Assembly: GCA_040389865.1 (NCBI GenBank)
Contig: JAZJZM010000007.1
Span: 195,271-259,270, forward strand
Length of the DNA: 64,000 nt
Direction: 5' to 3'
From: Bacteroidota bacterium
Lineage (GTDB): Bacteria; Bacteroidota; Bacteroidia; 2-12-FULL-35-15
Shown here: positions 1 through 22,600 of the stretch, in pieces
Layout of the letters: the number at the start of each line of letters is the position of its first letter
Numbering within the stretch: position 1 is the stretch's first letter
The notes under the pieces: generated by a model
Told to the model about the DNA's origin: nothing
Database searches by the model: none
The model's input: only the letters and a program-made list of their open reading frames with translations
Made by a program: the position numbers and the translations under genes

Positions 1-3000
1 GGTCAGGGTAATATGATCACTATTACCAGCGTAGTGCCATCTCAATTGACAATTTGCGGAACAGGCAAACTATTTACAATTACAATATACAACCCATCAC
101 CTTTTACAATTACCAACGACACCTTAAAGGTGTCGATGCCCAATGGTATAAACTATCTGGCAGGATCGGTAAGCGGAGCAACCTATGTAACCCAATTATT
201 TCCAAACGTAGAGGTGTTTGCACTGCCAACTATTCTTCCTTTACAAAGCATCACCATTACTTATATTGCGGAAGCAAAATGTAATGTTCTGGCTTATATT
301 TCCGGGGGGGGGATAACAAAAAACAATATCCGTGTGGATTATAAAGCTAACAATACCATCCATTACAATACACATATTACCAACTCTTATCTTGTAAAAC
401 AACCCTACCTTGTTATCACTACAATTACAAATCAATCTTATACAGGAAATATAGGTGATGTATTTTCACGCTGCATCACCATTGTAAATGCAGGTTCGGG
501 GGAACTCACCGAATTTACCTTAACAGATATTCATGGTTCGGGGATACAGGTGAATGCCGTTGACAAAGGAACATTGACAAATGTTACTACTGCTTTGGCC
601 AAAGTAATTGTGAATGGTACCAACTTCACAACTATTGGTGATGGCGACAATTTGTTTGAAAATGGGGAAAGTATGGTTATTTGTGAAACAGTAACTATTC
701 TTAATTGTATTTCTGCATCATCGGCCTTTAAAGCATTCTGGGGCTGTAGTGTAAATGCCTGCCAATCGTCAGTTTCGAGTGCCAATATTGTTTTTCCGAA
801 TTACATCCCTAATTTGGTGATGACTCCAACTGCATCTATGAATACCTGCATTGGTGCCGGGAATGCAAGCCCTCAGCAATTGAGAATAGTTAATACAGGT
901 TTAGGAAATGCGTTGAACGTAGCCTTAGAGATTTTTCAGGCAACAGGTGGGGGTTATAACAATACGGTTGGGTCCAATATTGATGCAGGAAGCTTCACCA
1001 TGCAGGTTGGGAGCGGAGGCACACCTGCTTTTGTGCCCACAACTATATTTCCTACTTCCGCCTTAAACTGTATGACAGCCCCTATTGGGAAGGTCACGCT
1101 TACTATTCCAACCATTAATGCGGGAGATACTGTATTTCTGAAATGGAACTCATACAGCTGTTGTTACAATGCTTGTGCAAACACTGGCAGAAGCTATATT
1201 AACGGATGGAGGTACAGGGGCACTTATAAAAATATCTGTCAAAACACCTATGTGATCTATGAAAATTGGGGAAGGGTATATTCCAATATTTATGCTGCTT
1301 TAGCAAACAACGGTTCGCCAGCTACTTTAAATGATGGGCAAACCGGTACATTTAATTTTTTATTTTCAAACTACGGCAATTCGTATCCTGCAGGGCCCGG
1401 GGCGCACTGGAAATTTGAATTTACGGTGCCTAATTGTTTCAGTTATTCAGGTAACCTTCACATTCTGCGCTCAAATGGAATAAATACCTGGCTTCCCACT
1501 TCAGTAAATAGTTCGGGGAATGTGATCACCGCTATTTTTAATGGAACCGCTCCCTGGAACCTTGCCCAGGGGGAATTAAAACTGGACCTGACTTTGGATT
1601 GTTCCAGCTGCACCGGAACCGACAGTTTGGGCGCCATCAGCGTTAAATCGTTTTTTGTCCCGAATGGCACCTGTGCCTGTGAAATTGGGGTTTCCTGCCA
1701 AAGTACTGCCGTTAGTATCAACTGCCCAAACCCTTGCCCCGAAGGTTTGATCTTTACTTATTTTGATTTAAAACGTACCAATTATGGCTATCCCGACAAT
1801 GAACCGAGTGGAGGGAATGGAATACCTGATGGACCCGGTCCTGTGGATATGACAAAAGTTAAAGCCGCCAGGGCCATGTTTGGCGATACCATTAAGGCAT
1901 CGTTTAACGGATGGATAAAAACCAGTATCGCTTATCCATCATGGAAATATTGTTATGCTATTTCTTCCATCGCAAATGGAAATCGCCTGGCATTTGTTGA
2001 TGCCAAATTAAAAATATACCGTGCCGGGGCCTTGTTAGCCACCTGTGCTAATTTTACTCCGGTGGTAACCGACTCCTCCACCAAAAGAACGTTTAAATAT
2101 AATTTAAGTGATTCCTTGCTTGGAAGCTGCTTTACAGGCCCGTATTTGAATAATGATTCATTGGTATTTGAACCAAGATATAGAGTTATTTCCAATATCC
2201 GTAACTCGGCTCCATTAAATTGTTACTCTTCCAATGAGTTTTACCTCAGTGATCTCGCAGCTTTCCCAATACCACCTACTCCTGTGGCCCACAAATTTCA
2301 ATGCGGGAACTACAATGGCAGTTGTTCCATTATCGGTTATTGGTTCAGGAACTGGGAATCAGAAAGTTATGATACCAAGTCCTGCAATAATGTGGTGCTA
2401 AGGCAAGATTATCATTTGAGTATTGGTCCGGGTAATAATAACGATGCCGGAGGGAACCTGTTCCCTTACGAATATCGAAACTGGGCACATCTTGAAAACC
2501 TAACTGCCATAATTCCTCCCGGATATACCTTGATATCAGCCCGGTTTAGAGAGATAAGAACTGCCGGAACATTAATTACCAATGCCAGCAGCTGGATAAA
2601 TTTAACACCGGCTGATCCAAATTCAGATACGCTTAGCTTTCCTGTTGAGCAGTATTATATAAATTTTGGAGGTTTAGCTATTATTACCCCAAGTGATGAT
2701 GGTTTTTATGGAACATTGGAAATAACACTTCAGCCCGGTTGTGAAGTAACTCCTTCCATTTATCAGGGGGTACAGAATGATGTTGATTTTGCCGTTATTC
2801 CCCAGCTAACCGGGCCCGGAACCGATACCACCTTTTTATCCGAAATTGATGATCATGTGGTGTATGATCCACCCGACCTGTTTATTCAGTCAACGCTTCC
2901 ATCTGTTTTTGCTCTCAATACCACTACAACCTGGGATATCAGCATCTCCAATACCTCCAATGTATCAGATGCTTTAAATACATGGATAAGCGGCCCGGTA

Positions 3001-19600: not shown

Positions 19601-22600
19601 CCTCAAATATTTCTGATGCTTTAAACACCTGGATAAGTGGCCCTACAATTTCCGGGGTAGCTATAACAAAGGTTGTTGATTTGGATAACAATGTGGTAAT
19701 TCCACTTACTGACAGTATTTATAAGGTTGGTATCGTTAATGCAGGTGATATGCGCCATTTCAGGATAACAGCTTCATTTATTTCCTGTGGGCCGGATAGT
19801 GTGATCGTTCATTCGGGATGGAATTGTAATGCCGGTTACCCAACAGGTGTGGGTACTTACCCTTGTATCCCTAAAAGAATCGCCTTAACCTTAACGCCCT
19901 TAACGCCTGCATTTTTAATTAACAGCGAAGGACCTCCTTCCAGCATTCAAATGTGTGATACAGCTGAATTTAGTGCCGAATGTGTTAATGTTCAGCTCGG
20001 AACAGCCTATAATGTTATTCTTAAAGCAACATTGCCGGTTGGTGCAACATTAGTACCCGGTTCCTCCCAATTTAGCTATCCTGTTTCTGATTCTTCAATC
20101 AATATTCCCGACCCTGTCTTAATTAGCGGAAATGAATGGAAATGGGACATTACAGCCACCGATAGTGTTATTGGTGCAAATGGATTGAAAGGTATATTAG
20201 ACACCATTTTAAATTCTTTTAAAGTAAGTTTTAAATTTATTACCGATTGTAGTTATACGTCAGGCAGCAGTGTGGCCTTTGTTGCAATGGGGAATGCGGC
20301 ATGTGGGTATGCTACGGAACCTGATATATCCTTGTCGCCTTCTTTAGATATTATTGGTGCCACCGAACCTTATGCCACATCTGTTATATTAACAACCACA
20401 TACGTTTCGCCATGCGCAGGAAATTCCAGCATACGGGTGGTTATACATAATCAGGGGCCCACGGCTTTTGGCGTTACCGACTCTGTTGTAGTTCAATTAC
20501 CTATTGGTGTTCCTTTCATACCAGGTTCTTTCAGCGGTATTTACAATGCTCCCCTTAATGGAACACCACGGCAGTATAGTTTAAGTGGGATCACTTACCT
20601 GGTATGGAAATTACCAATAGGAACCTTAGCGGGAGATAGCTGTATCTTTTCTTTTGAGTACATCGGAGATCCTCCTGCACTTGCTTGTGGTATTATTCTC
20701 TTTGAAGCAAAAACCTATAGCATAAGCACTATTACCTGCGTTGCAACAGGGAATAATTGCGTAACACAAATAATTACAGGCGACACAGCTCTCCCTGTAT
20801 TTACCTATAAAGCATACCTGTCGCTTAGTAATGGCTTTGCTACGGCAATACCTAACCCCCCGGGTGGAGAAACGGTAACCGTAAGCTATGATATTACTAA
20901 TACAGGACAGGCGATACTTACCGATGCTGATTCAATTGTTCAATTTTATTTTGATGCCAACGCAGATGGATTTTATAGTACAGGCGATGTGTTCATAGCA
21001 GAAGATACACTACTGATACCAAAGGACAGTACCATGAGGTTTACTTCCACTTTTAATGCGCCTGCCGGGCAAGGATGTTCCATTATTGCTCTTATTGATC
21101 CGGCAGTGAATTCCTGTGTTTGTGATTTTTCACAATTGCTTATCACTTCGTCATTACATAGCTTAAATAACGACAGCACTTTGTGTTCCAGTGAAACAAT
21201 AACACTGAGTTCTGCTCCTGTAGCGGGGTATACGTATAGCTGGACACCTGTAACCGGTTTAAGTGATCCAACTATTTCCAATACGGTGTTAACAACATCA
21301 AATTTAACGACTGCGCCTGTTTCAACACTATACATCCTCACAACAAACCGGATGGGTTGTATTGCTGCCGATACTCTTGTAATAACCGTGAATCCTTTAC
21401 CAATAGGAACCATCACCGGAACAATAGATGTGTGTGAAAACTCCGCTGCTCCAAGCGTTACATTAGTGGGGTCGGGAAGCACGGGGCCATATACCTTCAC
21501 TTATAACATTAATGGAGGATCAAATCAAACACTAACTACAACCAATGGAGATAGCGCCACTATTTTAGCACCAACAAACGTTCCGGGAACCTTTATTTAC
21601 AACCTGGTAAGTATACAAGACTCCAGTGCAACAGCCTGTGCCCAGCCTCAAAGTGCCAGTGTAACAATAATAGTGAACCCACTGCCATTAGCATCCGCTT
21701 TAATTGGAGGAACAACAGAAGTGTGTAAAGGAGGTACTCCGCCAAACATCACATTTACCGGATCAGTGGGCACACCGCCTTTTACTTTTACCTACACCAT
21801 CAACAATGGATCCCTTTTAACTGCAACTACTATAAGCGGAAACAGTATTATCGTGGCAGCTCCAACAACTACTGTTGGAGCATTTGTATATAATTTGTTG
21901 AGCGTACAAGATGCAAGCTCAACCACTTGCTCTCAACCGCAAAGCGGAAGCGCAACAATAACGGTAAATCCTTTACCAACAGCAAGCATAAGCGGATCTA
22001 TAGCAGTGTGCAGAGAGGCCGTATCACCCGATATCATCTTTGTGGGATCTAATGGTACAGCTCCATACACCTTTACGTATACCCTTAATGGTGGAGCCAA
22101 TCAAACAGTGGTTTCCACTAATGGCGACACAGCTTTTGTACCTGCTTCAACAATAGCAGATGGTACTTTTGTATATGCGCTGGTGAGTGTAATAGATGGA
22201 AGTATAACCACTTGCTCTCAGGCGCAAAGCGGAACTGCAACTGTAATAGTGGATCCATTGCCGACCGCAACCATTAGAGGAACAACTTCACTTTGCCAGG
22301 GTTTTCCTGCACCGGATATTACTTTTGTTGGATTCGGTGGTGTAAGGCCTTATATATTTACTTATACTATAAATGGTGTGATGCAGCCAACTGTGGTCGC
22401 TACAGCTATTGATAGTGTTACTGTGCCGGTCCCAACAACAATAGCCGGTATATTTACGTATTCACTTGTGAGCGTACAGGATGCAAACCTTGCAGCATGT
22501 ACGCACCCGCAAACAGGAAATGCAATAATAACGGTGCATCCAAAACCTATTGCCGCATTTAGTTCAACAAAAGTTTGTAATGGAAATGCAACACAATTCA

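Follow-up and report, generated by a model that had tools for sequence, protein, structure and literature searches.

Old mosaic similarity among three tandem genes for giant type IX-secreted proteins of a Bacteroidota bacterium probably reflects tree structure, uneven rates and ancient tail exchange

The stretch of DNA analyzed here, referred to below as the window, comprises 64,000 nucleotides (nt) of a Bacteroidota bacterium (assembly GCA_040389865.1, contig JAZJZM010000007.1, positions 195,271 to 259,270) and carries three giant open reading frames (ORFs) in tandem, P1, P2 and P3, all co-oriented on the + strand. The closest pair among the three encoded proteins changes along their length, and the explanation that we consider probable is a combination of the branching order of three old lineages, a block that evolves fast in one of them and one or more ancient swaps of the C-terminal tail, with no current gene conversion. 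P1 (13..7125, 2370 amino acids (aa) visible) encodes a giant type B cargo protein of a type IX secretion system (T9SS) and belongs to clade 1 of its family; its frame is open at the window start, so that ~20 N-terminal residues are missing. P2 (7479..14414, 2311 aa) is a chimeric copy, and P3 (16618..24612, 2664 aa) is a clade 3 copy with its sorting domain from ~24343. An earlier note on this DNA had placed the end of the array at 21000, which omits the last third of P3. The three proteins are separately evolving old members of a large Bacteroidota family of ~2,300-2,700-aa surface proteins and, judging from their sequences, are most likely adhesins.

In P1 an all-beta core of ~1500 aa is followed by the repeats X0-X1-X2-Y-Y, four PKD domains and a C-terminal sorting domain (CTD). 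The order in P2 is core, X0-X1-Y-Y, four PKD domains and CTD, and in P3 core, X0-Y-Y-Y-Y, seven PKD domains and CTD. X and Y are two kinds of ~95-aa immunoglobulin-like repeat situated between the core and the PKD domains, and their copy number varies among the three proteins. Of the tail domains, the CTD and the four PKD domains common to all three proteins match one-to-one, and the alignment of the tail is in register.

Overall amino acid identity is 0.62 for P1-P2 and 0.58 for both P1-P3 and P2-P3. Exactly two of the three proteins agree at 862 alignment sites, and the number of such sites shared by P1-P2, P1-P3 and P2-P3 was 46/107/44 in alignment columns 105-622, 34/33/66 in columns 623-974, 77/86/60 in columns 975-1611 and 166/44/73 in columns 1612-2700, much of the apparent P1-P2 closeness in columns 1612-2250 stemming from comparison of non-orthologous repeats (X1/X2 of P1 aligned to Y1/Y2 of P3 at 28-39% identity). 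The switching between pairs is significant by a chi-square test with breakpoints picked post hoc (chi2=137, p~1e-25), by a permutation test of the maximum window chi-square (p<2e-4) and by a 3SEQ-style excursion test with each of P1, P2 and P3 in turn as the ‘child’ (p<=0.001), and insertions and deletions (indels) follow the same pattern as the substitutions. The closest pair truly switches along the three proteins, as the earlier note had proposed, and the uniform pairwise identities that the note had set against its own reading were not seen.

The switches divide the + strand genes into five parts. In segment A (P1 262..1782, aa 84-590; P2 7791-9320; P3 16927-18450) P1 and P3 are closest, with 69% identity vs 56-57% for the other pairs, and in segment B (P2 9321..10352, aa 615-958; P1 1783-2826; P3 18451-19476) it is P2 and P3 that are closest (67% vs 58%). 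The three identities are nearly equal in segment C (P1 2827..4731, aa 939-1573; P2 10353-12257; P3 19477-21378), where the tree nevertheless still unites P1 with P3 (written 13|2 below). There follows a repeat zone with the X and Y repeats and, in P3, three extra PKD domains (P1 4732..5784; P2 12258-13067; P3 21379-23289), and finally the tail module of four PKD domains and CTD (P2 13068..14414; P1 5785-7125; P3 23290-24612), in which P1 and P2 are closest (69% vs 53-56%; 82% in the CTD). The particular stretches singled out in the earlier note fared somewhat differently from one another. Its P2-P3 stretch, KTNR to APTLI (88 aa), holds as described (74% vs 60-62%). P1 and P3 are closest in the stretch from NLFE to CQS (88% over 41 aa vs 59-61%), but together with the next 100 aa their identity is 74% and not the ~85% given, and the 92-aa sorting domains of P1 and P2, clearly the closest pair there (82% vs 51-56%), are not ‘nearly identical’.

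Three sequences have no topology, and a switch of the closest pair among them only marks the longest branch, be it through recombination or through uneven rates. Homologues were therefore collected, giving 159 proteins with E<=1e-50, with about 65 used alongside as outgroups. Four-point quartet tests with bootstrap were run on a 69-sequence alignment using p, Kimura and two gamma-corrected distances, with the family's branch of 2,190-aa proteins carrying the SprB repeat as outgroup. Each of the three paralogues has its own series of orthologues: P0024 (91.6%), P0019 (86%) and the next at about 66% for P1; P0001 (91.6%) and then P0010, P0005, P0007 and P0008 at 65-67% for P2; P0028 (92%) and then P0025, P0022 and P0027 at 87-74% for P3. 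P1, P2 and P3 thus belong to three old clades, 1, 2 and 3. No intermediates between the 92% orthologue of P2 and its next relative at 67% were found among 5.8 billion proteins.

With all four distances, 13|2,out receives 99-100% from whole-clade quartets in each of segments A, B and C, whereas the tail of PKD and sorting domains yields 12|3,out at 100%. A first run with smaller groups gave the same result for A, C and the tail and left B unresolved. The 13|2,out topology receives 94-100% across nearly all of the first ~1,400 aa; in a sliding scan it extends from residue 1 to ~1,400 except for a short block at P1 aa 580-725, and the switch to 12|3 falls at about P1 aa 1480-1600, the junction of core and repeat stalk at which the repeat zone starts. 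Neighbour-joining (NJ) trees of the segments show clades 1+3 as monophyletic (100%) in A and C, and in the NJ tree of the tail the clade 2 sequences lie among those of clade 1, with clade 3 elsewhere. P1 and P3 are closest to their own clades over their whole length and P2 alone changes allegiance, which makes P2 the visible chimera. The conflict between trees indicates that the history of the family includes at least one real recombination or module exchange.

The P1-P3 patch appears to reflect nothing other than the true sister relation of two old lineages, clades 1 and 3. In segment A the distance between P1 and P3 (0.40) matches that between P1 and the P3 orthologues of other genomes (0.38-0.39), so the patch is not specific to this genome. 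Nor is the P2-P3 patch in segment B specific to the tandem locus, since P2 and the solitary clade 2 genes of other genomes are equally distant from P3 (0.40 in both cases). Distances to the outgroup in segment B are 0.74-0.81 for clade 1, 0.49 for clade 2 and 0.58-0.65 for clade 3, and five of the seven indels there are private to clade 1. Deep nodes of segment B are unresolved, and the tree is star-like in a sub-block at about P2 aa 600-760. A higher rate in lineage 1, i.e. a long branch, would be enough to explain the closeness of P2 and P3 in this segment.

The P1-P2 patch in the tail is of a different kind. The core of P2 (aa 1 to ~1420) is of clade 2 and its tail (aa ~1862-2311) of clade 1 type: the tail is at a distance of 0.42 from the P1 group and 0.33 from P0023, vs 0.63 from the clade 2 relatives of P2's own core, from which that core is only 0.27-0.41 away. 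Nucleotide distance matrices agree in giving P2 a tail of clade 1 type. At four-fold sites of the tail P1-P2 identity is 0.54±0.04 vs 0.37-0.42 for the other pairs, and outside the P1-P2 tail these sites are near saturation (0.37-0.45; chance 0.27). The incongruence of the core (13|2) and tail (12|3) trees is visible at synonymous sites and the event behind it is ancient. With the P2 tail nesting in clade 1, these results point to ancestry by an ancient module swap as the source of the P1-P2 similarity. A separate recent conversion of the sorting domain, suggested by four-fold identity of 0.68 there (n=28), was considered and rejected because P0023 shows the same rise over the PKD region; the sorting domain seems simply to be more conserved than the PKD region.

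Gene order in related metagenome-assembled genomes (MAGs) bears on how P2 came to its present place. In the closest of them, JAZKBF01 (locus L001), the orthologues P0024, P0001 and P0028 stand in the same order on one contig. At loci L003 (JAZKBX01) and L038 (JAIOQD01) a P1 orthologue is followed directly by a P3 orthologue across a 290-400 bp spacer, with no P2 between them, and in a third MAG (L008/L009) a single contig carries the P1 and P3 orthologues at a distance of 250 kb. Orthologue distances branch as ((window, L001), L038), (L003, L008/9), and with P2 absent from L003 and L038 this makes one gain of P2 more parsimonious than two losses. The four closest relatives of the P2 core are all solitary, with unrelated neighbourhoods. 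Homology with the P1-P3 spacer of L003 extends over the whole P2-P3 spacer of L001 (79% over 425 nt), and the 150 nt upstream of P2 (7329..7478, + strand) are a diverged copy, at 71-77% identity, of those upstream of P3 (16468-16617). On the same scale, P3 upstream regions of orthologues from different genomes are 75-81% identical and unrelated comparisons give 60-66%. Probably, then, P2 is a late arrival in the P1-P3 spacer, preceded there by a copy of the P3 upstream region and with a tail that was chimeric by then. Had P2 arrived after the split from L038 and then been converted from P1, DNA identity of the two tails would be at least ~86%; the PKD regions reach 67-71% and the sorting domains 79-83%, which suggests, as far as incomplete MAGs can tell, that the chimeric tail is older than the residence of P2 at this locus.

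The history that we favour would accordingly run through three kinds of change. Lineages 1 and 3 would be sisters and lineage 2 deeper, leaving P1 and P3 closest in well-conserved parts of the core. Faster change in lineage 1, by substitutions and indels, over the block at about aa 590-940 would make P2 and P3 appear closest without any exchange. At the junction of core and stalk (about aa 1,480-1,600) or just past it, homologous recombination would have replaced whole modules at least once, giving in the P2 lineage a lineage 2 core that carries PKD and sorting domains of lineage 1 type, and afterwards unequal recombination among the ~95-aa repeats and the PKD domains may have altered their copy number. 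The mosaic, the conflicting trees, the lack of recent conversion and the gene orders are observed; the number of events, the gain of P2 rather than its loss and any direction of transfer are what we infer.

Several observations weigh against this history. Two windows within the block at P1 aa 580-725 support the quartet (1,other | 2,3) at 91-100%, and an ancient exchange or replacement of this block in the clade 1 ancestor may have taken place. The position of P2 inside clade 1 has bootstrap values of only 73-81%. The solitary clade 2 genes also join clade 1 against clade 3 in the tail, so that an older event, or a replacement of the clade 3 tail, may contribute to the signal for 12|3, and the transfer may have run in either direction. 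The likeness of the P2 and P3 upstream regions may be inflated by a regulatory element conserved across the family, the choice of one gain of P2 over two losses rests on parsimony and five incomplete MAGs, and every tree is a distance/NJ tree.

The alternative that survives best makes lineage 3 the main recombinant. The clade 3 ancestor would have taken stalk and tail from another family member, and the similarity of the P1 and P2 tails would be largely vertical descent. This accounts for P2 and the solitary clade 2 genes siding together with clade 1 against clade 3, and it fits the tail tree, which puts clade 3 with P0016 and P0020 (84%), as well as the different architecture of clade 3 with its four Y repeats, seven PKD domains and divergent sorting domain. 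It leaves unexplained the split of clade 2 in the tail tree and the fact that the P2 tail is so much nearer to clade 1 and P0023 than to the tails of P2's own core relatives. As a replacement for the P2 swap we regard it as unlikely, if worth serious consideration; a tail replacement in lineage 3 may well have occurred in addition to the P2 event.

Far less probable is an account without recombination, in which protein rates specific to region and lineage act on a single gene tree. The lack of topology among three sequences speaks for it, and segment B behaves exactly as a longest-branch effect would. Four-taxon tests insensitive to branch length nevertheless separate the core (13|2) from the tail (12|3), both at 100% and with four distances, and rates on one tree would not bring the P2 tail nearer to clade 1 (0.42) than to its own core relatives (0.63) or let the signal persist at four-fold synonymous sites. 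The case carries a caution, in that the switch of closest pair among three paralogues cannot by itself separate recombination from uneven rates; here orthologues and an outgroup resolved one pattern into an ancient module swap, effects of tree structure and differences in rate.

Ancient module exchange, the reading preferred here, bears out the earlier note only in part. Its recombinational reading stands as far as at least one true exchange is concerned, to which the 13|2,out core and the 12|3,out tail testify, and fails as active or recent shuffling between the tandem copies. Recent or ongoing gene conversion that homogenizes patches between the copies could draw on their tandem, co-oriented arrangement, on the switching of the closest pair and on the 82% identity of the P1 and P2 sorting domains. 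Yet direct repeats between the copies are only 60-77% identical at the nucleotide level, the best tract reaches 84% over a mere 88 nt, and no near-identity tracts with sharp borders were found among the direct repeats of the three genes; third-codon and four-fold sites are near saturation. The P1-P2 tail similarity goes back as far as the divergence of P1 from P0023 (~68% identical overall). P2 is, moreover, not in the array of L003 and L038.

Comparison with the related genome, which the earlier note had recommended, recovers the same mosaic and at the same time speaks against current conversion. The L001 orthologues are 89-90.5% identical to the window genes at the nucleotide level, with each 50-codon window between 0.77 and 0.99, and the L001 triple has the same mosaic proportions, unchanged at ~10% nucleotide divergence. 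Nucleotide identity between paralogues is the same within and across the two genomes: 0.662/0.659 within vs 0.658/0.661 across for P1-P2, 0.639/0.636 vs 0.632/0.642 for P1-P3 and 0.641/0.644 vs 0.641/0.642 for P2-P3. No 50-codon window between the window genome and L001 deviates towards concerted evolution (higher identity of paralogues within than across genomes), which contradicts conversion since the L001 split for all pairs and every window. No gene conversion is now active between P1, P2 and P3, and recent conversion as the origin of the patches is highly improbable. The mosaic is older than the split from the closest sequenced relative and, for the most part, older than the radiation of each lineage. 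Unlike an expressed copy with silent or truncated donor cassettes, the three copies are all intact ORFs of full length, and the upstream regions and start codons of P2 and P3 are alike; the locus is without any hallmark of cassette-type antigenic variation.

We give practically no weight to an alignment artefact from a shifted register of the repeated domains, since the mismatch of X1/X2 in P1 with Y1/Y2 in P3 and the Y repeats without clear one-to-one orthology affect the repeat zone only, the patches of segments A and B and of the tail persist with that zone left out, core indels are few and short, and the pairing of the four shared PKD domains and of the sorting domain is unambiguous. Repeat register also disposed of another candidate, an origin of the P2 Y repeats from P3, which a sliding window (0.75) and a quartet (78-99%) had suggested. 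A domain-by-domain matrix shows no preference, the P2 Y repeats being 60-61% identical to P3 repeats vs 60-66% to P1 repeats.

Among T9SS cargo proteins the nearest case is that of the Porphyromonas gingivalis genes kgp, rgpA and hagA, which have undergone domain rearrangement (Dashper et al. 2017, PMC5266723). Like P1, P2 and P3, the gingipains and HagA are paralogous type IX-secreted surface proteins; their adhesin modules are arranged differently from gene to gene, for which recombination has been invoked (PMC5266723). The P. gingivalis repeats are identical within and between genes and vary by strain, indicating recent and active exchange (PMC5266723), whereas the paralogues studied here are 60-84% identical at the nucleotide level and their mosaic is fixed and common to two species. 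The sorting domains differ as well, being of type A in the P. gingivalis proteins and of type B in P1, P2 and P3. By analogy, the three genes may be regarded as a fossil form of the P. gingivalis kind of process.

More distant parallels lie outside the T9SS. In the yeast FLO family duplicated surface genes likewise exchange segments and form chimaeras by ectopic recombination (PMC3512402), but these genes are eukaryotic and subtelomeric and the events can be observed experimentally, unlike the ancient trace left in P1, P2 and P3. MgPa of Mycoplasma genitalium (PMC2169797) and msp2/p44 of Anaplasma (PMC11946796) resemble the present locus in that a surface gene is mosaic with paralogous copies. 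Both rely on one expression site with silent or partial donors and on very short time scales; here, in contrast, there are three complete ORFs, P2 and P3 have upstream regions of their own, and no exchange has taken place since the species split. The evolution of P1, P2 and P3 is of an ordinary kind known for adhesin families, with no live variation mechanism. What the locus adds is an uncharacterized giant type IX-secreted family in uncultured Bacteroidota, with exchange of tail modules at the core/stalk junction and change in repeat number.

The three proteins also resemble the SprB-type cell-surface adhesins of Flavobacterium johnsoniae, which are likewise giant and repeat-rich with a type B (TIGR04131/CHU_C) sorting domain at the end. 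One difference is that P1, P2 and P3 have no detectable SprB repeat (PF13573) in a Pfam scan; the repeat is present in the 2,190-aa outgroup branch of the family. Pfam and NCBIfam matches are confined to the C-terminal parts of the three proteins. CHU_C (PF13585) scores 41.7, 42.5 and 51.7 bits in P1, P2 and P3 (cut-off 27), identifying the sorting domains as type B, and TIGR04131 scores 36.9, 34.7 and 45.5 bits (cut-off 35), P2 being marginally under. At the N-terminus, where a Sec signal peptide would be expected in T9SS cargo, P2 begins with MKKLLVITFLFLSY and P3 with MKRLLLLIFLFVNY, as read from the sequence; the N-terminus of P1 lies beyond the window. An AlphaFold2 model of P2 aa 21-1000 (predicted local distance difference test score, pLDDT, 82) consists of sandwich domains in an all-beta chain, with only generic likeness to solved structures, e.g. 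integrin legs and alpha-2-macroglobulin/C3 (template modelling score, TM, 0.1-0.19). A sequence search of the PDB with the core gave no match.

SprB binds a cognate PorP-like protein, and type B CTD proteins of its kind are believed to require such a partner (Gorasia et al. 2022, PMC9143113). A Pfam search of 19 further window ORFs (24.8-62 kb and the P2-P3 spacer) found no PorP/SprF partner; adjacency of such a gene to its cargo gene is common and not obligatory (PMC9143113). In this context P2 might even be a ‘head graft’, with a foreign lineage 2 core set behind a copy of the resident P3 upstream region and in front of a lineage 1 tail of resident type, an idea that we consider doubtful. 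If it were true, such mosaics would have been selected because the tail must fit the PorP/SprF-like anchoring partner of the host and the promoter the local regulation, while the binding head would be freely exchangeable. Type B cargo genes would then be modular head-and-anchor units, with constraints that tie sorting domains to their anchoring partners.

Upstream of P2 and P3 an element ATGCAAC(C/T)AATTTTT (ATGCAACTAATTTTTG) lies 87-89 nt before the start codons (window 7392-7407 and 16529-16544), and a second conserved block, TTTCAATGATTTTTATTAAAAAAAACAGCAAGGCATG, extends into the start codon. The first element also occurs at L001 11981 and 19207, L003 9912, L009 9912, L014 9907 and L038 4278, upstream of P2 and P3 orthologues and of another family member. 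The two blocks could constitute a promoter or a 5' leader common to the family. An Rfam scan of the window gave one tRNA only and no family matching either block.

The P2-P3 spacer of the window contains a ~2-kb insert (14410..16458, - strand) that is absent from the orthologous 300-bp spacer of L001. Its three ORFs, all on the - strand (15849..16142, 15436..15864 and 14676..15254), encode a HigB toxin (PF09907, E=1.7e-33), an overlapping HTH_3 antitoxin-like protein and a 192-aa protein without Pfam match. The insert lies outside the mosaic and shows that the spacer has been remodelled. No PorP/SprF-like or other T9SS gene adjoins the three cargo genes; the next gene after P3 encodes a LUD/4Fe-4S protein (window 24827-26209), and further downstream, to 62 kb, there are genes for an SDR protein, MoaA, a heptosyltransferase, an M28 peptidase, CysRS, three PAS histidine kinases and a LytTR regulator.

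Some of the related loci have peculiarities of their own. The P1 orthologue of JAZKBX01 (L003 2703-9713) lacks ~52 aa around aa 636-690 of P0019, inside segment B; its match to P0019 over only 1,668 aa had made a recent module swap a candidate, rejected in favour of this ~52-aa internal deletion. The P3 orthologue of JAIOQD01 (L038 4367-8800) has a frameshift or stop near 6700 and is either a pseudogene or an assembly error. At L010, L013 and L035, 2,190-aa members with the SprB repeat are flanked by ORFs of 1,400-1,700 aa that are 45-63% identical to parts of clade 3 proteins, which suggests other arrays of family fragments elsewhere in related MAGs. A distant family member of 3,211 aa, about 36% identical to P2 (L004 953-10585, L036 869-10501), stands directly upstream of a clade 1 gene in one MAG and of a clade 3 gene in another, and these different neighbours suggest that tandem pairing of family members recurs with varied partners.

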